From Escherichia coli (lineage in GTDB: Bacteria; Pseudomonadota; Gammaproteobacteria; Enterobacterales; Enterobacteriaceae), in the NCBI RefSeq assembly GCF_003334785.1, contig NZ_QOWV01000008.1: a stretch of 64,000 nt of DNA; one strand, 5' to 3'. The notes beneath the pieces are model-generated. The model was not told the DNA's origin, did not search any database, and worked only from the letters and a program-made list of their open reading frames with translations. The translations under genes and the position numbers were made by a program. This document shows positions 39,432 through 54,847 of the stretch, piece by piece. Position 1 is the first letter of the stretch. Every line of letters starts with the position of its first letter.

Positions 39432-40616
39432 CTAAATATCTTTAATAAACAGCAGGCAAATCATCGCAATACCCAACATCCCTATCGCCAGCCAGAACAA
39501 CGCATGGTAGCTCCAGATTTCAACCATAATTCCGTCAACAGAGCCGGCGATAATCCAGCCGACGCGTGAAGTATTTGCATATAACGTTGTCGCAGAGCCT
39601 ATTTTTTCAGGCATCAAGTCCTGAAAATAAAGCATGCCGATACCACAGAGAATACCAAGGAAGATGGCATTAAGAATTTGCAATTCCAGCTCAACCGCCG
39701 GAGTCGTCGCCATGAGTACGCTGGCGTAAAAACACATTCCACTCACGATAGCAATGAGCATTAATAGTCGCTTGCCAATACGTTTCATGTAATAGCCTGC
39801 GATTAACATCATCGGAATTTCCAGACCGGCAGCGATACCAATCATTTCTCCAGCCAGTTTATCGGTTAGATGCAGTTCATCAATAATAAATAGCGGCATA
39901 TTTATCATGTAGAGATTATTCGCCGCCCACATCATTGAACAGACCACAAAAAGTAGCCGCGTATCCCGCTTCCTGTGGGTGGAGGGTAAAATTTCTACGG
40001 GTTGGGTAACGACAGGAATATTTCTTTGTATTGATGGCAAAAACAACCAGACTATCAGTCCGCAAACAACAAATGCGATGGCAGCGGTGAGATACATCAC
40101 TTTAAAACTAAATCCCATTGCCAGTTCATAAGCGAGCGGTGGCCCGATAACCCAGGCAAGCGAGATCTGAGCACGTAAAAATGTACTGAACATGACCGTC
40201 TCACGGCCTGTTCTGTCGGCGTGTTCACGGGCGAGGGCGAACATTTGCGGGTTTGCGGTGGAAGCAAAACTACTCAGAAGTACGCCCGTTGAGAGGAGAA
40301 TGAAGTAGTTGCGATTCCACGCAAAAAGCGTGCAGGCCAGCACTCCAAATAAGCAACATAGCAGAATCAGTAATTTACGGTCGCCTTGTTTATCGGAGTG
40401 CCTTGCCAGAAATTGACTGACCAGAATTCCCATAATAGCGCTACCGGTGAAGAAAAAACCTACCATTATAGGACGGGCTTTCAGTTCATCTGCGAGGAAT
40501 ATACTTAGGGTAGGAGTCTGAAGAGCGCCCGCAATACCCGTCAGAAAGGCGACAAGTAAAAATGCCGCGGCAGTGAGATCAAGTATTTTTGATGGAGTGG
40601 TAGCCGTTTTTTGCAT
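39432..40616 (-). CDS. setC: Sugar efflux transporter SetC (MFS)
   Basis: 394-aa MFS ORF. Confidence 0.85.
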   Translation of the reverse strand: MQKTATTPSKILDLTAAAFLLVAFLTGIAGALQTPTLSIFLADELKARPIMVGFFFTGSAIMGILVSQFLARHSDKQGDRKLLILLCCLFGVLACTLFAWNRNYFILLSTGVLLSSFASTANPQMFALAREHADRTGRETVMFSTFLRAQISLAWVIGPPLAYELAMGFSFKVMYLTAAIAFVVCGLIVWLFLPSIQRNIPVVTQPVEILPSTHRKRDTRLLFVVCSMMWAANNLYMINMPLFIIDELHLTDKLAGEMIGIAAGLEIPMMLIAGYYMKRIGKRLLMLIAIVSGMCFYASVLMATTPAVELELQILNAIFLGILCGIGMLYFQDLMPEKIGSATTLYANTSRVGWIIAGSVDGIMVEIWSYHALFWLAIGMLGIAMICLLFIKDI

Positions 40617-41249
40617 TCTTCTGAATCACCGGGCGAAAAAATATAACTGAGTTACAAATAAGTACCAGTCGAATGAGTATTGTATTAAGAATTTTTGAGT
40701 ATCGCTGATACAACCAGAAAGCAATGCTAGCGCAATATTATAGGGCCAGCAATTGAGATTATTAGTAAAAGCATGTTAAGAATTAATTACCGAATTTATA
40801 TATTAATTATAGTAAGGCAATGAGCTATTTTTGATAGTAAAAATAAAACAAGTTGATTTGATATATTAAATGAACAAATTAATCTTGATGGCAGTCTGAT
40901 TATTGGTGAAGTTTATAGTCAGTTTTTTTCGCCAGCGGTTAAAGAAATAGAATAGTCGTATAAAAAAGGGTGTTCTGGGGCGAGTAAAACAACATCTTCA
41001 CCTTAATGGCGATACAGTTGGCTGAGAGTCAGCAGGGGGGCAAATCACCTGCAAATAAACACGGCGCATACTGGCGTGAATATCGCGGATGCGTTCGAGG
41101 ACAGAAGAACCGACAGGCGGATTCTTCAGCCGCTCATCGTCCATCACAAAACCTTAGACCAGGTATTCCTGAAGCCGATTGAATATTGAGCAGTAGAAAA
41201 TATCTGGATTGACAGTATTACAAGGGGTTGGAGAACGTCAGGAGAGGCA

Positions 41250-41273
41250 TTTTGGCGGAAGATCACAGGAGTC
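41250..41273. repeat. Distal att repeat: 24-bp direct copy of the selC 3' end
   Basis: ttttggcggaagatcacaggagtc is identical to 53075..53098. Confidence 0.7.
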
Positions 41274-41401
41274 AAAATTGACATATAACAATTTGATTCC
41301 AATCGTTTATATTTATCAGCTCTAATTCATTTATACACATCCTTATACACATAATATCTGTCGATTAATTTTTACACGTATCTTCACGCACGTTAACTCA
41401 G

Positions 41402-41695
41402 GAAAAAAATTTTTTTTCGAAAGAACTGTTCACACTGTTCACCTTTCTGTTTTCTCCTTTTATTTCAGTTTGATAGGTGGTGAATAATGGGTGAAGGGTG
41501 AACATTCGATTCTTCACCTCCGGCATTCTGCCGGTGTGACTTGTGCAGGGGATTAATCCTCCGCACTGAAATCACACAGGGAGAAAAAAGTTTTTTTGAT
41601 TTGATTGTTCATCTTTCGTTTTTCTCTTTTAATTTCAGTGTGATAACGGGTGAATATACGGTGAAGGGTGAACAGTGGATTGTTCACTTTCGGGG
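41402..41695. repeat. crr-like region: two imperfect ~120-bp direct repeats with TGTTCAC motifs
   Basis: Units at about 41402..41522 and 41579..41695 share tgttcac / gggtgaa / ggtgaagggtgaaca blocks. Confidence 0.6.
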
Positions 41696-41703
41696 AATTC
41701 AGG

Positions 41704-41731
41704 GATAAAAAAAGACCGGCAGATGCCGGTC
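41704..41731 (-). terminator. Rho-independent terminator after alpha
   Basis: gaccggcagatgccggtc hairpin with U-run on the minus strand. Confidence 0.6.
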
Positions 41732-41738
41732 AGATGAG

Positions 41739-44072
41739 TCAGGCTGTTGCAGGGTCGTCACATTTCGGCAGCCAGTCGCCGTAGCTTTCCTCTTTCAGCG
41801 TCAGGTTGGTCTGTATCCCCTGTTTGGTATGGCGCTTCTCGTAATTCAGTCCGTATTCCTTCAGCATCACCGGCAGCCCCAGCCCGAACATTTTCAGACT
41901 GAGTACATTCCGGTAGCCGTTTGCCTCCATGTAGGCCAGATAGGCGTGATAGAGGTATTTACGGTAATTACGCGGGATGATACTGGCGTTCCCCATATAC
42001 ATGCCGCTGGTCTGCGGCAGGGTTTCCAGATAGCCGATAAAATCAAACGTCGGGTCGGCATCCCGTTTGATGTTCAGTGCCTCGTCTGAGTTCTGCTGGG
42101 ACTGAAGCAGTGACCGGGCGAGCATCGGGTCGCTGAACTTCTGCATCAGGTAACGCACGATGACCGCCAGCTCGCGGGTGATTTTGTCCTTAAGCTGCGG
42201 GTCGCGCTCCTGCGGGGCTATCTGTTCCGGGAAGTGAATAATCACCCGCCGGCGTGACACGCCGCCGCTGCGGTCGGTGAAGCGCATCGGGTTATTGTTC
42301 ACGGCCAGAATCACCGCCGGGATGTGCGTGGAGTACGCATCCCGGTATTTCGGGTCAACGGACACCGCATCGCCGCCGGTGATGGCCTTGAGTCCGGCAC
42401 CGTCGCCGCTCCATTTTTCCTGGTCCGGCAGGCGTATCAGTGAGAAGCCAGTTAACGCGGCACGTTCACGCGGGGATTCCAGCGTCTCGATGGTGGCCGA
42501 CGTGGCGTTATCCTCACCGGCCAGCAGGGTGGCTATTTCGGCCATGATACTTTTGCCGCTGCCGCCGGGACCGGTCACCTCCAGAAAGAGCTGCCAGTCG
42601 TAGCGGTTTGCCAGCACCATAAACAGTGCGGCCAGAATCACGTCGCGTTTTTCCGCACGGCCACCGGCGGCACGGTCAAGCCAGCGCCAGAATGCGGGGG
42701 CGTGGGTTTCCAGCGTTTCACCTTCCACCGGCGGGGTGAAATCCACATCGCACAGGGCGCGCATCCAGTGTGACGGACTGTGCGGGTGGAACGTGCCGTT
42801 CTGCGTGTCGAGCACGCCGTTACGAAAGCCAATCAGGCGGCGGGAGGGGGCTTCCTGCTGCGGAATAATCAGCTTCAGGGTGTCCACCACGGAGGCCACC
42901 TTCCCGGAGGAGAACGGCGCGCGCAGACGCTGAAACAGCCCGGCCACATCCCGGGCAAAGTCCTGTGGTGGCAGCACCTTCCAGACACCATTTTCATAGC
43001 GGGACAGAAGCTGGCCGTTGGCATCGACCGCGAGCGCCTCGCCGTAATGCTCATAGATACGCATGGCCTTTTCGCTGGTACTCATGGCGGAAAACTCCGC
43101 TTCGCTCATGGTGTCGAACGGGCTTTCAGCCGGTGGCCGGATGGCATCATAAATGGCCTTACGGGTGGTTTCCCCGCCGTACTGCGTGAAGGCATCATTC
43201 CAGTCACCGAAGACCGGCGGCAGGGCAACAACGCCCTCACACGCATCTGCGGCTGCGGCGGCTTTTTTCTGGCCGTCACCGCTGAGGTCACGGTCTGCGG
43301 CAAGGACAATCTGACAGGCCGGATGCTTCTGCCGGGCAAGGCTGGCCAGAGAAAGGAGGTTCACGGAAGAAAGCGCCACCATCACCGTTTCACCGGTCAG
43401 GTGATGTACGGTAAGTGCGGTCGCGTATCCCTCCGCTATCCACAGACGTTTTCCGGCCTGATTCTGTCCTTCAAGGGTGTGACAGGTGCCCCTGACCTGT
43501 CCGCCTTTCAGGGTGCGCTTACGGCCGTCAGCACTGATTAACTGAAGGTTAACCAGTTCGCCGCTGTCGTCATACAGTGGCACCACAAGGTCACCGGCGC
43601 GCCAGCTCACGCCACCGGCTCTGTGTGTGCCGGTCAGCATCCGGCATTCCCGGCCGGGAAAGCCCTTGCGGGTCAGGTAGGCGTTACCGGTTCCGGGACG
43701 GGTTTTCGCCATCAGGGTTTGTGCCAGTGCGGCGGCGTTCTTCCGGGCGGCTTCTGTTTCAGCACCGGCGGCGGCCGTCACTGCCGGGTCAGCCGGGGGC
43801 AGGCAGCCGGTCACGGCAGCCACCTTTGCGGCCGCGTCGGACGGGGAAACACCAAACACCTTTTCAACCAGTTTCAGGCCGTCACCGGCACCACACTGAT
43901 TGCAGTACCAGGTGCCGCGCCCCTCCCTGTCATCAAAACGGAAACGGTCACTTCCGCCACAGACCGGACAGGGCTGATGACGGTTTTTCAGCACCTGAAT
44001 CCCCAGCGACGGGAGAATACGCGGCCAGTGGCCGAGCGCATGGCTGACGGTGGCGGTTACGTTCATTTTCAT
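41739..44072 (-). CDS. P4 alpha-type primase-helicase
   Basis: 777-aa ORF; N-terminal zinc-ribbon CPVCGG..CNQCG, Walker A GPGGSGKS. Confidence 0.9.
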   Translation of the reverse strand: MKMNVTATVSHALGHWPRILPSLGIQVLKNRHQPCPVCGGSDRFRFDDREGRGTWYCNQCGAGDGLKLVEKVFGVSPSDAAAKVAAVTGCLPPADPAVTAAAGAETEAARKNAAALAQTLMAKTRPGTGNAYLTRKGFPGRECRMLTGTHRAGGVSWRAGDLVVPLYDDSGELVNLQLISADGRKRTLKGGQVRGTCHTLEGQNQAGKRLWIAEGYATALTVHHLTGETVMVALSSVNLLSLASLARQKHPACQIVLAADRDLSGDGQKKAAAAADACEGVVALPPVFGDWNDAFTQYGGETTRKAIYDAIRPPAESPFDTMSEAEFSAMSTSEKAMRIYEHYGEALAVDANGQLLSRYENGVWKVLPPQDFARDVAGLFQRLRAPFSSGKVASVVDTLKLIIPQQEAPSRRLIGFRNGVLDTQNGTFHPHSPSHWMRALCDVDFTPPVEGETLETHAPAFWRWLDRAAGGRAEKRDVILAALFMVLANRYDWQLFLEVTGPGGSGKSIMAEIATLLAGEDNATSATIETLESPRERAALTGFSLIRLPDQEKWSGDGAGLKAITGGDAVSVDPKYRDAYSTHIPAVILAVNNNPMRFTDRSGGVSRRRVIIHFPEQIAPQERDPQLKDKITRELAVIVRYLMQKFSDPMLARSLLQSQQNSDEALNIKRDADPTFDFIGYLETLPQTSGMYMGNASIIPRNYRKYLYHAYLAYMEANGYRNVLSLKMFGLGLPVMLKEYGLNYEKRHTKQGIQTNLTLKEESYGDWLPKCDDPATA

Positions 44073-44086
44073 GGTGTTGTTCTCCT

Positions 44087-44407
44087 TCAGTGCAGTACCG
44101 GCGCTTTTATGTGACGGGCACAGAGTTCATCCATCACAACCAGCCCGAGAAAGGACAGCGACGGCGCGGCCTTCAGGGGGCCGGATTCCATTAAATCTTC
44201 CAGCAGGGCACAGGCTATCTGACGCCCTTTTTCCTCACCGTGCTGGCGCAGATAAAAGCCTTCCAGCTCAGCGGCGATGGCCGCCTCCAGTGACTCAAGG
44301 GTGAGATGCGGGTAGCGGTGCTGACGTTCGCACACGGTCAGCCAGGCACAGGCGACAGCGCGACGGTAAAGGGCAGCGCGTAAGACGGGCGGTAAGGGGG
44401 TTTTCAT
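44087..44407 (-). CDS. Hypothetical protein, P4 left-operon position (orf106-like)
   Basis: 106-aa ORF immediately upstream of alpha, same strand. Confidence 0.5.
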
Positions 44408-44542
44408 TTGTTTTCCTCCCTGTGACAGATGACTGCATTCCGTGCCGGTTGCATTAACTGATAAGGCATATCTGCGTCTCCTGAAGACGTGCGTATCCCT
44501 GCGCGAATACGCACATTTAATTTTTCGGGTGTCGTTTTTTAA

Positions 44543-44998
44543 TTACAGATAATTGCGGTAACTGTTATCCGGGGTGATTTCCGGGTCAGGCTCCGTGCGG
44601 GGAATTTCCCGCCATTCCCGCGCCACCGGTGCCGCCCGGCTGACCGGAACAGGGTCCTGCGGGTAAATATCCAGATATTTCTCCCGCCATTTCTGTAATT
44701 CCGGGTCTCCGGCCATTTCTTTCAGTACCGCATGCCGGTTTACGGGGCTGCGTTTAAACAGGTCAGGACGGTCACAGGTAAATTCCCGCAGAAAACGCCC
44801 CAGCGGGATGTCTGTGGTGCGCCCGTCGGCGATGATACGCACAAGGATACTGAATTTACGGCGGTACGGGTTCCAGACAATTTCCGGGCAGCGGTACGGC
44901 ATTTCCCACGGAATACCGTCTTCCAGAATGCCGACCACGGCCACATCGGGAAAACCGGCAGAACGGTAAATCTCACCGGGCTGGGGAAAATCAAACAT
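44543..44998 (-). CDS. Hypothetical protein, P4 left-operon position (orf151-like)
   Basis: 151-aa ORF co-oriented with alpha. Confidence 0.5.
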   Translation of the reverse strand: MFDFPQPGEIYRSAGFPDVAVVGILEDGIPWEMPYRCPEIVWNPYRRKFSILVRIIADGRTTDIPLGRFLREFTCDRPDLFKRSPVNRHAVLKEMAGDPELQKWREKYLDIYPQDPVPVSRAAPVAREWREIPRTEPDPEITPDNSYRNYL

Positions 44999-45857
44999 GC
45001 GTCCTGTCTCCCCGGTCTTTCTGCTGGGCGAGAAAATCGCGGCACAGGCCTTTGGCTTTCAGCTCATTCAGCACAAAATCAATATCTTCATTCAGGTAAC
45101 TGAAAATATGCGGAATGTAGAGCTGATGCAGGCCGGAGAGTTCACGGTGAATCAAATCACCCCCAACAAACTGGGATACGGCGCTGGCGCGGTTGAGCTT
45201 ATGGTAAGCCTCAATGCTGAGGTGTTCACGGGCGTCATGACGCGCTGAGACGGTCTGAGGGGCTTTTTTATTACGCACGGGACACCTCCACCACCGGCAG
45301 ACGGGCAGCAAGGGAGAGCACATAGTCACGGACAAGGGAACGGCGGGCGCTGCGTTCATCACCGGCGACGGTGCGAAGCATACAGATACGGGGATGACGG
45401 TCTGTGCGACGGACAGCCGCAAACACAAAGACAAATTCAGGGTGTGAGGGGGTAAGGGTTGTAGCCATGATGGCAGCCTCCTGTGAATAGCAAATAACGC
45501 TATCGCCGGAGTTCTCACGCTCGATGGCGATAGCCCAGACGGGGGTGAGAATACCGGCTTCACAGGATACCGGCCAGCCCGGAGGCTGCCCCGCCTGAGC
45601 TACCATTGACTCAGAGGCATAACATGCGATTGCGAACAGGATCATACCTGCACGGCAAACCACACGCCACACCATAATCTGGTGCTCTGTGGCGTTGATT
45701 GCGACACAAAAAAAGACGCATGGCGCGTCATATGTCGCCTGTGAATTGCTCGGGTTCTCACGCCCGGCTGCCGATTTTGCGGCAGCGGAAAAACTATATC
45801 CGCAAATGCCGGAAAAAGGCAAGCCAGAAAAAGGGAGTTTTTGCAGAGCGGGCATCA

Positions 45858-46124
45858 TCATGCGTCGTACCCCCGTTTGCGTCCGGCAATGCGTCCGGCC
45901 ATCCATGCGGTGACTTCAGAGTGCAGCCAGGCCACATTTTTACCGCCAAGACTCACCTGCGGCGGAAATTCCCCCTTACGGATGAGTTCGTAGATGGTCG
46001 AGCGTGACAGGCCGCACAGGTGCATCACTTCCGGAAGACGTAAAAAACGCTCCTGTGTGATGTCCGGCAGCGGCATCAGTGGCGTCACAGGGGCGGGAGA
46101 CGGGGAAGAAAAAACAGCTTGCAT
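45858..46124 (-). CDS. AlpA/Vis-family small DNA-binding regulator
   Basis: 88-aa ORF with HTH-like [16 protein letters not shown]. Confidence 0.65.
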
Positions 46125-46403
46125 CGGGCTACCTCGTTAATGTCCATACAGCACCGGATAAGTCCGTCCGGCTTCAGGTAGCGCTTTATTTTGTGAATAT
46201 TTTCAGCAGACGCAACAGGGGGGATTTGTTCCGGCAGCCTTACAATGCTTGTGTATTTTTTGTTCATCTCCACTTAAAGTCATTTAAAGCCACTTAAAGC
46301 AATTCGTAATTTTTATAGTGAAATACAAATCGTTTTTTCTTATTCATTCCCGGCGAATTAATAAAAACAAACAGTAATAAACAGCACAAAAAGCCCATCA
46401 ACG

Positions 46404-46508
46404 GGTGAACAGTGGTGAACAGACGGTGAACAGTCATTACTGCGATTGTTCACCCTTTAACTTACTGTATTACTTATCTTTTTTCTTATGGTGAACAGAG
46501 GTGAACAG
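46404..46508. repeat. ori-like iteron cluster (GGTGAACAG octamer copies)
   Basis: Five direct copies of ggtgaacag plus one inverted ttgttcacc within about 105 bp, between divergent vis and sid. Confidence 0.6.
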
Positions 46509-46676
46509 TAAAATATAAAAAAACAAACAGTAAGCCGGTTTTTCCTACGACCTTTTCCTGGCTTGCCGGTGTGAGGATGAGTCTCCTGTGTCAGGGCTGG
46601 CACATCTGCAATGCGTCGTGTTGTTGTCCGGTGTACGTCACAATTTTCTTAACCTGAAGTGACGAGGAGCCGGAAA

Positions 46677-47411
46677 ATGTCTGACAACACCATCCCTGAA
46701 TATCTGCAACCCGCACTGGCACAACTGGAAAAGGCCAGAGCCGCCCACCTTGAGAACGCCCGACTGATGGATGAGACCGTCACGGCCATTGAACGGGCAG
46801 AGCAGGAAAAAAATGCGCTGGCGCAGGCCGACGGAAATGACGCTGATGACTGGCGCACAGCCTTTCGTGCAGCCGGTGGTGTCCTGAGCGACGAGCTGAA
46901 ACAGCGCCACATTGAGCGCGTGGCACGCCGGGAGCTGGTACAGGAATATGACAATCTGGCCGTGGTGCTGAATTTTGAACGTGAACGCCTGAAAGGGGCG
47001 TGTGACAGCACGGCTACCGCCTACCGGAAGGCACATCATCACCTTCTGAGTCTGTATGCAGAGCATGAGCTGGAACACGCCCTGAATGAAACCTGTGAGG
47101 CGCTTGTCCGGGCAATGCATCTGAGCATTCTGGTACAGGAAAATCCGATCGCCAACACCACCGGCCATCAGGGCTACGTCGCACCCGATAAGGCTGTCAT
47201 GCAGCAGGTGAAATCATCGCTGGAACAGAAAATTAAACAGATGCAAATCAGCCTCAGCGGCGAGCCGGTTCTCCGGCTGACCGGACTGTCAGCGGCAACA
47301 CTTCCGCACATGGATTATGAGGTGGCAGGCACACCGGCACAGCGCAAGGTGTGGCAGGACAAAATAGACCAGCAGGGAGCAGAGCTTAAGGCCAGAGGAC
47401 TGCTGTCATGA
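46677..47411 (+). CDS. P4 Sid-like capsid size-determination scaffold
   Basis: ORF 46659..47411; ATG at 46677 preceded by gaggag RBS; 244 aa, coiled-coil-rich. Confidence 0.8.
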   Translation: MSDNTIPEYLQPALAQLEKARAAHLENARLMDETVTAIERAEQEKNALAQADGNDADDWRTAFRAAGGVLSDELKQRHIERVARRELVQEYDNLAVVLNFERERLKGACDSTATAYRKAHHHLLSLYAEHELEHALNETCEALVRAMHLSILVQENPIANTTGHQGYVAPDKAVMQQVKSSLEQKIKQMQISLSGEPVLRLTGLSAATLPHMDYEVAGTPAQRKVWQDKIDQQGAELKARGLLS

Positions 47412-47908
47412 TTTACTGCCCGTCGTGTGGACATGTTGCTCACACCCGCCGCGCACATTTTATGGACGATGGCACCAAGATAATGATTGCACAGTGCCGG
47501 AATATTTATTGCTCTGCGACATTTGAAGCGAGTGAAAGCTTTTTCTCTGACAGTAAAGATTCAGGAATGGAATACATTTCAGGCAAACAGAGATACCGCG
47601 ATTCACTGACGTCAGCCTCCGGTAGCATGAAGCGCCCGAAAAGAATGCTTGTTACCGGATATTGTTGTCGGAGATGTAAAGGCCTTGCACTGTCAAGAAC
47701 ATCGCGGCGTCTGTCTCAGGAAGTCACCGAGCGTTTTTATGTGTGCACGGATCCGGGCTGTGGTCTGGTGTTTAAAACGCTTCAGACCATCAACCGCTTC
47801 ATTGTCCGCCCGGTCACGCCGGACGAACTGGCAGAAAGCCTGCATGAAAAACAGGAACTGCCGCCAGTACGCTTAAAAACACAATCATATTCGCTGCGTC
47901 TGGAATGA
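47408..47908 (+). CDS. P4 Delta-like late transactivator (tandem Ogr-type zinc finger)
   Basis: 166-aa ORF with two CxxC..CxxC blocks (CPSCGH..CRNIYC and CRRCKG..CTDPGC). Confidence 0.8.
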   Translation: MIYCPSCGHVAHTRRAHFMDDGTKIMIAQCRNIYCSATFEASESFFSDSKDSGMEYISGKQRYRDSLTSASGSMKRPKRMLVTGYCCRRCKGLALSRTSRRLSQEVTERFYVCTDPGCGLVFKTLQTINRFIVRPVTPDELAESLHEKQELPPVRLKTQSYSLRLE

Positions 47909-47981
47909 GGGCTGCCGGTTAACACCGGCCGTCGCCGCACACCGTATTTTTATTCTTCAGCATGATGAGAAAGAGATAACG

Positions 47982-48554
47982 ATGGAAAGCACAGCCTTAC
48001 AGCAGGCCTTTGACACCTGTCAGAATAACAAAGCAGCATGGCTGCAACGCAAAAATGAGCTGGCTGCGGCCGAACAGGAATATCTGCGGCTTCTGTCAGG
48101 AGAAGGCAGAAACGTCAGTCGCCTGGACGAATTACGCAATATTATCGAAGTCAGAAAATGGCAGGTGAATCAGGCCGCCGGTCGTTATATTCGTTCGCAT
48201 GAAGCCGTTCAGCACATCAGCATCCGCGACCGGCTGAATGATTTTATGCAGCAGCACGGCACAGCACTGGCGGCGGCACTGGCACCGGAGCTGATGGGCT
48301 ACAGTGAGCTGACGGCCATTGCCCGAAACTGTGCCATACAGCGTGCCACAGATGCCCTGCGTGAAGCCCTTCTGTCCTGGCTTGCGAAGGGTGAAAAAAT
48401 TAATTATTCCGCACAGGATAGCGACATTTTAACGGCCATTGGATTCAGACCTGACGCGGCTTCGGTGGATGACAGCCGTGAAAAATTCACCCCTGCGCAG
48501 AACATGATTTTTTCGCGTAAAAGTGCGCAACTGGCATCACGTCAGTCTGTGTAA
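47982..48554 (+). CDS. P4 Psu-like polarity suppression / capsid decoration protein
   Basis: 190-aa ORF following delta. Confidence 0.8.
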   Translation: MESTALQQAFDTCQNNKAAWLQRKNELAAAEQEYLRLLSGEGRNVSRLDELRNIIEVRKWQVNQAAGRYIRSHEAVQHISIRDRLNDFMQQHGTALAAALAPELMGYSELTAIARNCAIQRATDALREALLSWLAKGEKINYSAQDSDILTAIGFRPDAASVDDSREKFTPAQNMIFSRKSAQLASRQSV

Positions 48555-48718
48555 AATTCCCCGAAAATCCGCCCGTTTTTACTGAAAAAAGCCATGCATC
48601 GATAAGGTGCATGGCTTTGCATGCGTTTTCCTGCCTCATTTTCTGCAGATCGCGCCACGCCCGGCGTGGCCTGAGCGTGTCAGCGCAACTGCATTAAAAC
48701 CATCCCACAAAGCGGGCG

Positions 48719-48737
48719 GGCGAGGCGGGGAAAGCAC
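48719..48737. other. cos site (P2/P4-type 19-nt cohesive end sequence)
   Basis: ggcgaggcggggaaagcac. Confidence 0.6.
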
Positions 48738-48979
48738 TGCGCGCTTACTTAGATGCGTGAATTTATTTATATCACTGAAGTATATCCCTAAGCTCATTTC
48801 TCAAAGGGCCTATGGTTGCACAAGGTTGTACCATGGCATTCAAAACTTTTTAAACCAAGAATGACAATTTCATTATTAGGCCGGAATAGTTACTAATTTT
48901 AGTATAGGTTGCGATTGTTTAACGCATTTTTTATTATGATGCAGATTTTATTATTACTAATGGGGTGCAAAAAACACGT

Positions 48980-50269
48980 ATGAAAAAAAATGTTGGTAAC
49001 CGCAATAAAAATTCTGATGTGCTTATTCTTAAAGGTATGTTGAACAATTTAAAAGATGGTTTAAATAATTTTGAATTATTGCTTAAATTGCAGTTTAAAA
49101 TATTGGTGTGCGTGATGAGATGTGAGCGGAAAATTAAGTTTCTTAAAAAGAATAATGCTCATTTAAGGTCGGTGTTAAAAAAATCAAGACTTCCAAAAGA
49201 AAAATCTCTGGCAGTAAAAGAAAAAATTAAATACAATTCTGAAGTAATTACTGCTGAAAAATTCAAGATATATACGTATAAAATGTTTGGCGATGCTGTT
49301 GCATTTTTATACATCGATAAATATACAATTAAACAGTTATACTACAATGTACATAATTACAATGTTAAAGAAACGTCGGGGGATTTGAGCGGTAAGTCTG
49401 GATTGCGAGAGGAATGGGAATGCGTAAAACTTGCATGTGATAATAAAGTTCCAGCTCTGTTGCATGATATTACAATGAGTATAAGGCATGGAGATGTATC
49501 ACTTTTAGGTAAAGATGAGCCATTTATTATTGAGATGAAATCAAGCTCAAATACAAATAAGAGAGTTGAGCGGCAAAAATCTAACCTTGAAAAATTAGGA
49601 AGTTTCATAGCAAAAGACGAAGCTGAAAATTTTCGAGGGATTCCATTGTTAATCAGGAAAAATTTGTTAACTGAAGAGGAATCATATTCTCAGGTTTTAA
49701 ATGAGTGTCTTAATGATTGTCGCAGCAAAGGAATGGCTTTGGTTGAAGCTGAAAAAGGATTTTATATCTGCGCAGTTAGAGAAGGGAATATGGCTTCTAT
49801 GCTAGAAAATATAGATTTTGATGAAAAAAAAGAAGTTTTTCCTGTATTTCTCAATCAATATAAAAATAATGGGGAGTGGCTACCATTAACACCATTTACA
49901 CTATTAATTAACGATCCTTACGATCTCCATGATTTTATCGAAGGGGAATTAACAATAGCTTGTTTTTTAATGCTCGATGAATACAAAAAAATTGCTATAG
50001 AACTAGGCTATGAATTAGTTTTTGTTTCTAATGATGAATATAGTATCTTGTTAAAAAGAATTGGTGAAGATATTATATTTGGTGTTTCCTGGCAAATGTT
50101 GTTAAGAGTTCCATTAGAGATGATGTCCATGTCATGGTTGATAAAAGAAAGTATTAATATATATAGTAACTCCCTAGAAAATAGCACCCATAATGATGAA
50201 TTAAATCAGGGGCAGGGAAATACTAAAAATTCATTATTCGAAAAATACAAGAATTTATTTTCTTACTAA
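48980..50269 (+). CDS. Hypothetical protein in satellite variable region; PD-(D/E)xK-like signature
   Basis: ORF 48965..50269 (GTG) or ATG at 48980; AT-rich; motif HGDVSLLGKDEPFIIEMK. Confidence 0.6.
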   Translation: MKKNVGNRNKNSDVLILKGMLNNLKDGLNNFELLLKLQFKILVCVMRCERKIKFLKKNNAHLRSVLKKSRLPKEKSLAVKEKIKYNSEVITAEKFKIYTYKMFGDAVAFLYIDKYTIKQLYYNVHNYNVKETSGDLSGKSGLREEWECVKLACDNKVPALLHDITMSIRHGDVSLLGKDEPFIIEMKSSSNTNKRVERQKSNLEKLGSFIAKDEAENFRGIPLLIRKNLLTEEESYSQVLNECLNDCRSKGMALVEAEKGFYICAVREGNMASMLENIDFDEKKEVFPVFLNQYKNNGEWLPLTPFTLLINDPYDLHDFIEGELTIACFLMLDEYKKIAIELGYELVFVSNDEYSILLKRIGEDIIFGVSWQMLLRVPLEMMSMSWLIKESINIYSNSLENSTHNDELNQGQGNTKNSLFEKYKNLFSY

Positions 50270-50301
50270 TTAAGCATTGTAATTATATTTGATTTTTTCT
50301 A

Positions 50302-50335
50302 CAGGCTTGGACGGAATCATATAGCTCCAAGCCTG
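50302..50335. terminator. Hairpin between the two convergent cargo ORFs
   Basis: Perfect 10-bp stem caggcttgga..tccaagcctg with 14-nt loop. Confidence 0.45.
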
Positions 50336-50370
50336 TTGTGTCGGTATCAAAAAGAAAGTGATATTATTGT

Positions 50371-51744
50371 TTATCTAATATATTTTGTTACTTCCATATT
50401 ATCTTCATCGTCAAAAGAGTACTCAACCATCATACGACTATTTTTACCTGACTTAATATCTTGAAGCCAAGCTGAGGCAACCCTAGGGTCTAAATGCTGT
50501 TTTCTACTCAGCTCATTATTTTTTAGCCTATCAAGCCTTATTGCTCTTTGAAGAGTTTTATCGATGTAGTCTTCCAAATCAATGGACAACCTCCTTTTTG
50601 GATATAAATATTGGTATTCATCACACAATAGTACTCCTGGTAATTTAATTTCGCGTAGGTCGAAAGAATACCAACTATAGTTTTTAGACTCATTAGCTAA
50701 TTCCGAAACTAGATGAGCCCCATTTTGTTGTAAGAGAGATATTTTGTGATCGATGCTAATGTCAGATATTTCTCTTAAAGACTCAAAATGCATGTTTTCG
50801 TAGATAGTATTTAATAAAATACTCTCCATGTAAGAGTAAAAATCAGTACCATCGATGATAATATTAGTTTCATTGTAGACTGCAAGAGACATAAGATATA
50901 TGAAGAAAACTGCGGGAGTACTATTACCTCTGTTTATATCAAGTCTAAGGGAGTTGACATAATCAGGCGGAGAGTTTGAGAAAATTTCTCTTATTAACCA
51001 GTCTGGAATAGTGGTTCTTGTTAGAATGTCAGCGTTCAAACTTGAACGACATAAAAAAATACACATCTTTAATTTTAATTTTATTGAAAATGATGGGAAT
51101 AAATGATCGATGAAAGATAAAATACATGTATACTCTGCTAAGTCTGTTTGTTGCAACTTTTCTTTTATTTCATTTTCAAGCATTTTTAATTTAAAAAAAT
51201 CATTCCTTTTTTCTAATATTTCCCAATGAAATAATTGCTCCTGAGCGTACGCATGCCCCTCTAAAATAGCTAGCATGCTTAAAGGAATGTTTAGGATTTC
51301 TTGATAATTATTAACATACCCAAAGAAATGGACTCTGATATACACACCCATATCGTCATCATATTGTAATGATGCTTTAATATTTTTATAATTTAATTTA
51401 TTAGTGCTGTTGTTTTTGAAGTGATAATGTAAAGTAATTTCAGTATCATCAACTAATAAATTATCAAAAGCCTCCTTTGTTTCATATTTAAAATAGTTAT
51501 ATAGCCGACATGAATAATTTAACCCCCAGTGAGTTGTAGAACAATCAAGTAAATGGATTGTTTCATGGAGATATGTTTTATAAAATTCAATTTCGCTATC
51601 ATCAAAATCATATATGCTTTTACTGTCTATGATATTTTGTGCTTGCGGTAAACTTATATTTAATTCATCGTTTGAAATCTCAATTAAATGTGATGAAAAA
51701 TCATAAGAACCCAATGTTTTGCTGTTAAATATACATCCGCTCAT
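50371..51744 (-). CDS. Hypothetical protein with HEXXH zinc-metallopeptidase motif, translationally coupled to int
   Basis: 457-aa AT-rich ORF; YLHETIHLLD at residues 58..67; start overlaps int stop as ATGA; agggga RBS. Confidence 0.65.
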   Translation of the reverse strand: MSGCIFNSKTLGSYDFSSHLIEISNDELNISLPQAQNIIDSKSIYDFDDSEIEFYKTYLHETIHLLDCSTTHWGLNYSCRLYNYFKYETKEAFDNLLVDDTEITLHYHFKNNSTNKLNYKNIKASLQYDDDMGVYIRVHFFGYVNNYQEILNIPLSMLAILEGHAYAQEQLFHWEILEKRNDFFKLKMLENEIKEKLQQTDLAEYTCILSFIDHLFPSFSIKLKLKMCIFLCRSSLNADILTRTTIPDWLIREIFSNSPPDYVNSLRLDINRGNSTPAVFFIYLMSLAVYNETNIIIDGTDFYSYMESILLNTIYENMHFESLREISDISIDHKISLLQQNGAHLVSELANESKNYSWYSFDLREIKLPGVLLCDEYQYLYPKRRLSIDLEDYIDKTLQRAIRLDRLKNNELSRKQHLDPRVASAWLQDIKSGKNSRMMVEYSFDDEDNMEVTKYIR

Positions 51745-52916
51745 AGCAAATCCCCTAAAAGATAATCAGAGTACCATTGAATCATCGTTTTCCTTTGAGA
51801 AAAATATTGTGCGTGATTATAGGTTCCTCGGATATTGTTCTTATCAACATGTGCTAATTGCATTTCAATCCAGGTACTATCAAATCCCTGTTCATGTAGG
51901 ATTGTTGACATTGTATGTCTAAAACCGTGACCTGTAGCACGTCCTTTGTAACCAAGTAACTCAATCACTTGTGAAACACTTTCTTTTGAAATTGGTTTGC
52001 TACGATTGTTCCTGCCAATAAAAATATAGGGATAATGGCCGGTGATAGGCTTTAGCTGTTTAAAGAGGTCTACCACCTGAGTAGACAAAGGTACAATATG
52101 TGGTCTGCGCATTTTCATACGTTCCGCTGGTATCTCCCATATACCTTTTTCGAGGTCTACTTCTTCCCACGTAGCAAAGCGCATCTCCTGCGTTCTTACA
52201 CCAGTCAGCATGACTATCTTCGTAGCATTTTTGGTGATGATGCTACCGGTATAAGCTTCGAGATCCCGAATAAAATGAGGCAATTCTTCGGCAGATAGAA
52301 ATGGATGATGTTTTTGCTTAGGAACGGCCAGAGCGATGGCTAAATCAGGCGCAGGATTGTATTCAGCGCGGCCAGTTATGATTGCGTAGCGATAAACCTC
52401 ACCGCACCTCTGACGTACCTTACGTGTTTTCTCTAGTGCTCCACGCTTCTCTATTCGTCGCAACACTTCAAGAAGTTCTAAGGGTTTGATTTCACTAATA
52501 GGACGTTTACCAATGAACGGGAAAACATCTTGCTCAAATGTTTTAATAATTTCTTCGCGGTAGGCAAGTGTCCAGCGATCGGCTTTATTTGAGTGCCACT
52601 CACGACATATAGCCTCGAATGAGTTTTCTGTTGAGAGCTGCTGTGCCAGCTTTTGGGCTTTACGTTCTTCCACTGGGTCTATGCCGTTTGCAACCTGCTT
52701 CCGAGCTGTATCGCGTTTCTCACGTGCTTCAGCTAGGCTCACAAGGTCGTAGCTACCAAATGACATTAACCGCGCTTTTCCGGCAAAGCGGAAACGGAAA
52801 CGCCAGCCCTTCGAGCCATCGGGATTGATAAGCAATGACAGGCCCTGCCCGTCGTTCAATGTGTATGGCTTGTCTTGGGGCTTTGCTCGTTTGATTTGTA
52901 TATCTGTAAGTGCCAT
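51741..52916 (-). CDS. int: P4-type tyrosine integrase
   Basis: 391-aa ORF with C-terminal catalytic-type residues (GHGFRHT.., ..NHAQY); adjacent to tRNA 3' end. Confidence 0.9.
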   Translation of the reverse strand: MALTDIQIKRAKPQDKPYTLNDGQGLSLLINPDGSKGWRFRFRFAGKARLMSFGSYDLVSLAEAREKRDTARKQVANGIDPVEERKAQKLAQQLSTENSFEAICREWHSNKADRWTLAYREEIIKTFEQDVFPFIGKRPISEIKPLELLEVLRRIEKRGALEKTRKVRQRCGEVYRYAIITGRAEYNPAPDLAIALAVPKQKHHPFLSAEELPHFIRDLEAYTGSIITKNATKIVMLTGVRTQEMRFATWEEVDLEKGIWEIPAERMKMRRPHIVPLSTQVVDLFKQLKPITGHYPYIFIGRNNRSKPISKESVSQVIELLGYKGRATGHGFRHTMSTILHEQGFDSTWIEMQLAHVDKNNIRGTYNHAQYFSQRKTMIQWYSDYLLGDLL

Positions 52917-53077
52917 GTGTATAAGCCAAAAATATGTATAAAAAATCTATACACATCACTATACATATTTTTCATGGATTCAGGGAGATCTTGTCGGACG
53001 GTTACGGATGAGTGATTTACTATATGTTTTGAAAATAAAGGATTTTTAGACTCTCTCGGATGGTGACGGAAGAATTT

Positions 53078-53172
53078 TGGCGGAAGATCACAGGAGTCGA
53101 ACCTGCCCGGGACCGCTGGCGGCCCCAACTGGATTTGAAGTCCAGCCGCCTCACCGGAGACGACGATCTTCC
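53078..53172 (-). tRNA. selC: tRNA-Sec (selenocysteine)
   Basis: Minus strand reads GGAAGATCGTCGTCTCCGGTGAGGCGGCTGGACTTCAAATCCAGTTGGGGCCGCCAGCGGTCCCGGGCAGGTTCGACTCCTGTGATCTTCCGCCA. Confidence 0.85.
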
Positions 53173-53464
53173 GCGCCTCGATTGCTACATGGAGGCGGGG
53201 CGCATTATAGCTACTTCCTTGAGTTTCTACATCCCCCAGATCAGTTTTTTCCGCCTAATACACGCAGCGTATTATCACGAAAGCATTATAGTTCATATAA
53301 AATCCATATTTTACAATGATATATGAGCGGAATTAACGCTACCACGATCACATAAAACAAGAATCATAAATTAATAACCAGATATCGGAATATTCGCTCT
53401 CACAGGGATGGTTTACAAAATGCGTTATCGGTCTCAGCACCCCTATAGCATCAAGGAAAAGTAG

Positions 53465-54847
53465 ATGAAGAGTGAAGTGTTGTCCGTTAAAGAGAAAATT
53501 GGTTATGGCATGGGAGACGCCGCCAGCCACATTATTTTCGATAACGTAATGTTATATATGATGTTCTTTTATACCGATATTTTTGGCATTCCTGCCGGAT
53601 TTGTCGGAACCATGTTTTTGGTCGCTCGTGCACTGGATGCGATTTCCGATCCTTGCATGGGGTTGTTGGCCGATCGAACGCGCTCTCGCTGGGGTAAATT
53701 TCGTCCGTGGGTACTGTTTGGCGCACTGCCATTTGGGATCGTCTGTGTACTGGCCTATAGCACGCCAGATCTCAGTATGAACGGAAAAATGATTTATGCA
53801 GCAATTACTTACACCCTACTTACCTTACTTTATACCGTCGTCAATATCCCTTACTGCGCATTGGGTGGTGTAATCACCAATGACCCGACTCAGCGTATCT
53901 CGCTGCAATCCTGGCGTTTTGTGCTGGCGACCGCGGGAGGCATGCTTTCTACGGTTCTGATGATGCCACTGGTTAATTTAATTGGTGGTGATAATAAACC
54001 ACTCGGTTTCCAGGGTGGTATCGCGGTCCTTTCCGTGGTGGCATTCATGATGCTGGCATTCTGTTTCTTCACCACTAAAGAACGCGTTGAAGCACCACCT
54101 ACAACGACGTCTATGCGGGAAGATTTACGTGATATCTGGCAAAACGACCAGTGGCGGATTGTCGGTTTACTAACCATTTTCAATATCCTGGCGGTGTGCG
54201 TACGCGGTGGAGCGATGATGTATTACGTCACATGGATTTTGGGTACGCCGGAAGTGTTTGTCGCTTTTCTCACCACTTATTGCGTGGGTAACCTGATTGG
54301 TTCCGCTCTGGCAAAACCGCTGACCGACTGGAAATGTAAAGTCACTATTTTCTGGTGGACGAACGCCCTGCTGGCAGTGATTAGCCTCGCGATGTTCTTT
54401 GTTCCCATGCAGGCCAGCATCACTATGTTTGTCTTCATCTTCGTGATTGGTGTGTTGCATCAACTGGTGACACCTATCCAGTGGGTAATGATGTCCGATA
54501 CCGTCGACTACGGCGAGTGGTGCAATGGTAAACGCCTGACCGGGATCAGTTTTGCTGGCACGCTGTTTGTGCTCAAACTGGGGTTGGCCTTCGGCGGCGC
54601 TCTTATCGGCTGGATGCTGGCTTATGGCGGATATGATGCGGCAGAAAAAGCGCAGAACAGCGCCACGATTAGCATCATTATTGCGCTATTCACGATTGTT
54701 CCGGCGATCTGTTATTTGCTGAGCGCGATTATCGCTAAACGCTACTACTCACTCACGACGCACAATCTGAAAACCGTTATGGAACAGCTGGCCCAGGGCA
54801 AACGCCGTTGCCAGCAACAATTCACCTCTCAAGAAGTGCAGAACTAA
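53465..54847 (+). CDS. yicJ: GPH-family glycoside/cation symporter YicJ
   Basis: 460-aa polytopic membrane ORF. Confidence 0.85.
   Translation: MKSEVLSVKEKIGYGMGDAASHIIFDNVMLYMMFFYTDIFGIPAGFVGTMFLVARALDAISDPCMGLLADRTRSRWGKFRPWVLFGALPFGIVCVLAYSTPDLSMNGKMIYAAITYTLLTLLYTVVNIPYCALGGVITNDPTQRISLQSWRFVLATAGGMLSTVLMMPLVNLIGGDNKPLGFQGGIAVLSVVAFMMLAFCFFTTKERVEAPPTTTSMREDLRDIWQNDQWRIVGLLTIFNILAVCVRGGAMMYYVTWILGTPEVFVAFLTTYCVGNLIGSALAKPLTDWKCKVTIFWWTNALLAVISLAMFFVPMQASITMFVFIFVIGVLHQLVTPIQWVMMSDTVDYGEWCNGKRLTGISFAGTLFVLKLGLAFGGALIGWMLAYGGYDAAEKAQNSATISIIIALFTIVPAICYLLSAIIAKRYYSLTTHNLKTVMEQLAQGKRRCQQQFTSQEVQN

Follow-up and report, generated by a model that had tools for sequence, protein, structure and literature searches.

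A P4-like satellite at selC in Escherichia coli carrying two orphan cargo genes as candidate anti-phage modules

P4-like satellites are defined by seven components, int, psu, delta, sid and alpA together with epsilon and alpha, and those in which all seven are present are classed as Type A (SatelliteFinder definition of Moura de Sousa and Rocha; PMC8628076). They occur in 44% of Escherichia coli isolates, and a hotspot between psu and int has been described in them (Rousset et al., 2022; PMC9122126). Here, we analyse an element of this kind in a stretch of 64,000 nucleotides of E. coli DNA (contig NZ_QOWV01000008.1 of assembly GCF_003334785.1), which is referred to in full as the window. Positions 41249-53098, beside the tRNA-Sec gene selC, very probably hold an integrated and apparently fully functional P4-like satellite, as judged from sequence comparison, and its hotspot cargo, the genes called A and B below, is likely to consist of two independent candidate defence modules. 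The integrase (Int) of P4 itself targets a leucine tRNA gene (leuX). P4-family DNA adjoining selC, as found here, is known from 933L, a cryptic prophage beside selC at the locus of enterocyte effacement (LEE) of E. coli O157:H7 EDL933; however, 933L is a decayed fragment on a large pathogenicity island, whereas the element described here is complete and lies there by itself. The satellite in itself is nothing new, as the tRNA integration and the defence hotspot of P4-like satellites are well documented. It is a clean and apparently active case of a P4 backbone in which the whole cos-to-crr segment (cargo, integrase and attP) has been swapped, and its cargo represents two families of orphan proteins; between them these turn up again in mobile settings of three defence-rich kinds, namely the hotspots of P4 and P2 and integron cassettes.

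The backbone of the element aligns closely with that of P4. In a megablast comparison with phage records, 41404-48718 matched positions 4291-11624 of P4 (X51522/NC_001609) with a nucleotide identity of 97.7%, and the match crosses the cohesive end, with 48719-48744 corresponding to P4 positions 1-26, before the homology stops at 48744. This P4-like stretch (41404-48744) covers about 7.3 kb from crr to cos; alignment to P4 had been proposed as a check in an earlier note on this DNA. Nine P4 proteins, translated and compared with those of P4, are intact without internal stops and are 96-100% identical to them, except for the open reading frame (ORF) of the immunity region; the PHROG assignments concur with this comparison. 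No virion or structural genes were found in the interval, whether among the ORFs, the PHROG hits or the annotation, and no large ORF was left unassigned. The earlier note had taken the element for a satellite rather than a full phage and had seen no P2-type structural genes in it; the identity to P4, the intact core proteins, the exact cos and the lack of structural genes all point the same way. Since all seven defining components are present, the element is a Type A P4-like satellite.

The order crr, alpha, orf106, orf151, epsilon, CI RNA, vis, ori, sid, delta, psu, cos is shared with P4. It also agrees with the order given previously, except that the left operon contains more than two small ORFs and that the crr repeats had not been listed. 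The 19-mer at cos is the same in both elements and their sizes are alike, the excised circle being expected to measure 11,825 bp here compared with 11,624 bp for P4. The difference lies in the cos-to-crr segment, in which P4 carries gop-beta-cII and its own Int, whereas cargo A, cargo B and a different Int, attP core and set of arm motifs are found here. On the circle this non-P4 segment of about 4.5 kb runs from 48745 via attP to 41403 and contains A, B and int. The same element, with an identity of >98.6%, is present in 10 isolates that are unrelated and come from echidna, wallaby, human and water, and ten complete RefSeq genomes contain it or a copy nearly identical to it.

The boundaries of the element are given by a direct repeat, ATTTTGGCGGAAGATCACAGGAGTC, which is exact over 25 bp and spans the last 21 nt of tRNA-Sec (CCA included) and 4 nt beyond (Table 1). 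By our own estimate, the chance expectation for an exact 25-mer repeated within 12 kb is about 1e-7. A repeat of 24 bp had been reported earlier; that form, TTTTGGCGGAAGATCACAGGAGTC, is indeed found at both of the positions then given, but the exact match is really 25 bp long. To represent the uninterrupted locus, 40300-41273 was joined to 53099-53600, giving a synthetic empty site of 1,476 nt. Many E. coli chromosomes match all 1,476 nt of this construct in one piece and with 100% identity. It follows that the insertion is genuine and precise, and that its presence varies within the species. Contiguous coverage of at least 80% of the empty site was obtained for 2,471 of the 5,426 complete E. 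coli genomes; the arrangement described in the earlier note, with setC directly beside selC and nothing inserted in between, is thus that of roughly half of the complete genomes. With a repeat of the tRNA 3' end as its boundary and a natural empty site in existence, this is a tRNA-targeting integrative element.

Comparison by blastn with three sibling selC satellites delimits the cargo. The siblings share the insertion site, the flanks, the backbone and the position of int beside selC. Their backbones are about 97.8% identical to that of the present element up to 48744/48745, and homology returns at about 51760-51765, within the last codons of int. They differ in the content of the cos-int slot, and int itself is only about 88-89% identical at the nucleotide level. 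The slots of the siblings contain GapS4a/GapS4b, a retron St85 reverse transcriptase with its partner, and a SIR2 protein with its partner. In the present element the GC content is about 30% across 49000-52000, compared with 55-63% in the backbone. The slot from 48745 to about 51760 is the psu/cos-int anti-phage hotspot of P4-like satellites. Its two genes have been listed before: Table S1A of PMC9122126 pairs WP_000742539 (A) with WP_001406847 (B) under 'hypothetical + hypothetical', and the representatives of 'system 32' in Table S1B of the same paper, a system with no Pfam assignment and 48 occurrences among 5,251 loci, share their first residues with A and B. No mention of either accession was found in the main text of the papers searched, Table S1 of PMC9122126 being the only place in which they were met. 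As far as we have found, the pair is catalogued but uncharacterized.

The motif residues of A (Asp172 and Glu185-x-Lys187) are invariant, and the protein falls into phrog_14906, a family of unknown function. We predict A to be a PD-(D/E)xK-type nuclease with a coiled-coil arm for sensing or oligomerization. A homologue in Citrobacter freundii lies in a P2-like prophage, where nothing else separates gpA from the portal gene, and one in Serratia fonticola also occupies the gpA-portal slot, beside an unrelated orphan. This slot is the hotspot of the old/tin type in P2, and the A-family genes in it are 48-52% identical to A and are found without B. Remoter relatives of A adjoin transposases, integrases, DruA and toxin-antitoxin (TA) genes. 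The orphan that follows the A homologue in the S. fonticola P2-like prophage (locus L007, 9771-11141) encodes 456 residues and gave no Pfam or PHROG hit; considered as a possible relative of B, it proved to be unrelated.

The family of B comprises 188 representative clusters, nearly all of 430-470 residues, in an exhaustive profile search. His60, Glu61, His64, Asp67, Trp73, Gly74, Gly133, Glu162 and Tyr205 are invariant in 60 of these clusters. The HExxH motif and the downstream glutamate form what reads as a gluzincin-like pattern, and B is predicted to be a zincin-like metallo-hydrolase. The family has a confidently predicted fold without a close relative in the PDB. An identity as ZorC or as an EH-signature protein was considered and rejected, as B shows no similarity to the ZorC core domain with its E400/H443 motif.

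Homologues of B are found in several other mobile contexts. In the Vibrio parahaemolyticus superintegron, a homologue about 34% identical to B forms a single attC-flanked cassette, without A, amid ParE/Phd, kinase, MazG and reverse-transcriptase cassettes. The surrounding array (loci L003 and L004) encodes a Ser/Thr kinase, a MazG-like protein, a reverse transcriptase of 499 residues, several GNAT acetyltransferases and ParE/Phd pairs, and looks like a defence-rich stretch of the integron. Another homologue lies beside Tn7-like tnsABC-tniQ genes in Idiomarina. At this locus in Idiomarina fontislapidosi (L006), the homologue and an orphan of 241 residues are located between a truncated Mg-chelatase/ComM-like gene and tnsA-tnsB-tnsC-tniQ, and the two may be the cargo of an element inserted in comM. 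Of two further homologues, one is next to a lambdoid int-xis pair and the other is next to a TA pair of the PIN type.

A and B are most likely to be two independent single-gene candidate anti-phage modules. Independence is favoured because each family also occurs alone elsewhere and because A and B do not form an operon. The proposed antiviral role would follow from the position of the genes, from the recurrence of their families in defence-rich sites and from the high validation rate of P4 cargoes of unknown function: six of eight such hotspot cargoes, picked at random, protected against phages (10.64898/2026.02.27.708500). The systems named in that preprint (Crouga, Bandua, Aernus, Toga, Reve and Hailong) have a domain content unlike that of A and B.

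Several observations weigh against this interpretation. Neither A nor B has a match in Pfam, NCBIfam or PADLOC (E ≤ 0.01 for PADLOC), so that no homology to a described defence protein family was found in these collections. Tables S2A and S2B of Rousset et al. (2022; PMC9122126), in which the systems assayed are given, do not include the pair. Peptides of A and B, DNA words from them and the strain accession were not found in the supplementary text of the preprint, the part of that source which was covered, and the cargo could be one of its two unnamed non-protective ones (10.64898/2026.02.27.708500). Finally, A and B have been kept together, in convergent orientation, in two satellite lineages that are about 27% apart at the protein level. 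Wider searches gave a similar picture to that from Pfam, NCBIfam and PADLOC. With PADLOC at E ≤ 1, ten members of the A and B families yielded only an insignificant match to HEC-01B (E = 0.096, for the relative P0057); 60 members of the B family scanned singly gave nothing in Pfam, NCBIfam or PADLOC; divergent members of both families were likewise without hits in Pfam and NCBIfam; no match for the cargo families was obtained in profile searches of PDB sequences; and tblastn found neither A nor B in 50,697 phage records.

The second of the two lineages, locus L011, comes from another enterobacterium and is likewise a P4-like satellite at selC, but a diverged one. It has the same A-B-int block, with A and B convergent and an overlap of 4 nt between B and int. 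Compared with the proteins of the window, its identities are 86% for yicI, 29% for Sid, 64% for Psu, 74% for A, 73% for B and 94% for Int. The dN/dS ratios against this satellite are 0.125 for A and 0.079 for B, indicating that both genes are under purifying selection. The preservation of the layout, the convergence and the overlap in a satellite in which Sid is only 29% identical would suit a single two-gene system, with B for example acting as a zincin-like sensor or regulator of the A nuclease, or a couple resembling a toxin and antitoxin. Rousset et al. (2022; PMC9122126) list A and B always together, and in all ten of the complete genomes in which either gene is present the other is present as well. 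However, homologues of A are found without B in the Citrobacter P2-like prophage, in Serratia with an unrelated partner, and near transposases and integrases; homologues of B are found without A in the integron cassette and next to the Tn7-like genes, the lambdoid int-xis pair and the TA pair; and the convergent orientation of A and B means that they are not an operon. The co-retention of A and B is explained equally well by a two-gene system and by simple linkage to the integrase, and we regard a single two-gene system as possible but rather doubtful.

A role other than defence, whether in counter-defence, manipulation of the helper, addiction or adaptation to the host, is unlikely for the cargo. 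A and B are without homology to validated defence proteins, and two of the eight cargoes of unknown function assayed in the preprint were non-protective (10.64898/2026.02.27.708500), as such a role would lead one to expect. Against this, the cargo occupies the exact slot that holds validated systems in the sibling elements, both families recur in defence-rich sites (the gpA-portal hotspot of P2 and integron cassettes beside TA modules), and the low GC content (about 30%) and rapid exchange are as usual for cargo of the hotspot. We lean, if only by a little, towards one or both cargo genes being an undescribed single-gene anti-phage system, with A as a coiled-coil-armed PD-(D/E)xK-like nuclease and B as the first member of the HExxH family to be characterized. 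If this is correct, the B family would also circulate as integron cassettes and prophage morons, and the A family in P2 prophage hotspots. Both genes are inexpensive and well justified candidates for phage-defence screening.

Whether the element as a whole is still mobile bears on the reading of the locus as an integrated functional satellite. Islands linked to tRNA genes are often decayed, the scar of a rhuM pseudogene lies beside attL and no helper was identified within the window; these points would agree with a cryptic, immobile P4 remnant that has become fixed at selC as a domesticated island. Such a remnant is very improbable, however. The att cores and cos are exact, each core ORF has its full length and matches its P4 counterpart with an identity of 96-100%, and Int is also full length. 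Moreover, the copies that are >98.6% identical in the 10 unrelated isolates, together with an empty site in about half of the complete genomes, indicate recent mobility.

The integrase gene appears to have a history in common with the cargo. An allele of int that is at least 99% identical occurs only in the ten complete genomes that bear the A and B cargo. Related int genes are present in 324 genomes, including O145 Shiga toxin-producing E. coli (STEC); those in the other 314 are mostly 80-90% identical at the nucleotide level and include ones from non-satellite islands at selC. Because the int allele tracks the A and B cargo while the backbone is about 97.8% identical to those of the selC siblings, the data suggest that cargo and int were exchanged as one block. 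The end of int and the beginning of B share 4 nt, ATGA (51741-51744), in which the stop and start codons overlap; the overlap is also seen at 11767-11770 of L011, and translation of B may be coupled to that of int. The motif TATACAYAT is present six times in the 64-kb window, compared with 0.49 copies expected, and all six are in the att arms (41332 and 41344 on one side; 52915, 52932, 52948 and 52960 on the other). From their likeness to the annotated repeats of the P4 attP arms, these copies are probably arm-type Int-binding sites. A selC-associated island (pathogenicity or genomic, of the LEE, PAI-I or SHI-2 type) that shares with P4 no more than the type of its integrase might be brought to mind by the relatives of int at 80-90% nucleotide identity, O145 STEC included, and by the standing of selC as a classic insertion site for islands, but it is refuted by the gene content, as the whole P4 set for replication, immunity, hijacking and cos is present and only the two cargo genes lie besides it between the att repeats.

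The near-identity to P4, together with established P4/P2 biology, allows a life cycle to be proposed. Int would have joined the attP core of 25 bp to the selC 3' end by recombination, regenerating the tRNA. In the lysogen, the left operon would be silenced by CI RNA through premature termination. With a P2-type helper infecting the cell or resident in it, Vis and Int would excise the element, and alpha would replicate it from ori and crr. Epsilon would derepress the helper, and Delta would switch on its late genes. Sid would then steer the helper capsid protein towards small capsids, which Psu would decorate, and the helper terminase would package the DNA through the P2-type cos. In such a scheme A and B would shield the lysogen, and hence the satellite, from competing phages.

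The features of the element are collected in Table 1. The crr region lies between alpha and attL, and a repeat family found in it (D1) occupies 41436-41523 and 41606-41693. Six copies of the type 1 iteron of P4, TGTTCACC, lie in ori and three more in crr; the expectation for the whole 64 kb is 1.6. The ORF of the immunity region is identical to its P4 counterpart at 120 of 139 positions as compared. The matches to RF01695, RF01394 and RF03163 are all above their gathering thresholds, in support of RNA-based immunity. The flanks of cos resemble P2-type cos regions.

Table 1. Positions of the features of the selC satellite in the window.
Feature	Position	Strand	Basis
attL core, 25-bp duplicate of the selC 3' end, distal element boundary	41249-41273		Exact repeat and empty-site reconstruction
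Two TATACACAT motifs, candidate arm-type Int sites, alpha-side attP arm	41332-41352	+	
crr, cis replication region, two ~120-bp direct repeats with TGTTCACC iterons	41404-41703	+	Homology to P4 4291-4590
alpha, primase-helicase, 777 aa	41739-44072	-	766/778 positions (stop included) identical to P4 alpha; phrog_2249, E = 4e-240
orf106 (DUF5375)	44087-44407	-	100% identical to P4 ORF106
orf151	44543-44998	-	148/152 identical to P4 ORF151
epsilon, derepressor of P2 helper prophage	44991-45278	-	95/96 identical to P4 epsilon; phrog_10016
Immunity-region ORF (kil/eta, 'Icd-like' frame), overlaps CI RNA	45271-45861	-	PGAP annotation in strain A1; phrog_6928
CI RNA (C4 antisense RNA), P4 immunity factor	45523-45610	-	Rfam RF01695, 74.9 bits (gathering threshold 45)
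isrK and c4-a1b1, CI RNA targets in left-operon leader	45709-45799	-	RF01394, 71.4 bits; RF03163, 49.5 bits
orf88 (vis/alpA), excisionase and regulator	45858-46124	-	88/89 identical to P4 ORF88; excisionase PHROGs
ori iterons, six exact TGTTCACC	46404-46507		Within P4 ori homology (P4 9086-9809)
sid, capsid size-determining external scaffold	46677-47411	+	241/245 identical to P4 Sid
delta, P2 late-gene transactivator	47408-47908	+	164/167 identical to P4 Delta
psu, polarity suppression and capsid decoration	47982-48554	+	189/191 identical to P4 Psu
cos, 19-nt cohesive end GGCGAGGCGGGGAAAGCAC	48719-48737	+	Exact, single match in window
Cargo A, WP_000742539, 429 aa, N-terminal helical hairpin and PD-(D/E)xK-like motif	48980-50269	+	
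Cargo B, WP_001406847, 457 aa, zincin-like H60-E61-x-x-H64, D67, E162	50371-51744	-	
int, P4-family tyrosine recombinase, selC-specific, 391 aa	51741-52916	-	38% identical to P4 Int, full length; phrog_1; partial NF007246 match
Four TATACAYAT motifs, candidate arm-type Int sites, int-side attP arm	52915-52968		
attR core, overlaps the 3' end of intact selC	53074-53098		Exact repeat
selC (tRNA-Sec), integration target, left intact	53078-53172	-	ARAGORN; Rfam RF01852

Strain A1, an E. coli isolate from echidna faeces, matches the window with an identity of 99.9%. No other mobile element and no P2-type helper was seen in the part of the window that was checked (1 to about 57200). On the setC side the satellite is flanked by yicL, setC and the remnant of a rhuM pseudogene; its neighbours at the opposite end are yicJ and yicI. 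The rhuM fragment, at about 41013-41174 between setC and attL, is also annotated in genomes in which selC is empty. Because of this it is an older scar of an earlier selC-linked island and lies outside the satellite. The remainder of the setC side (1-40600) is ordinary core chromosome, with yidB/yidA, dgo, ibpAB, tisB, ilvBN, uhp, ade and nlpA-yicL-setC.

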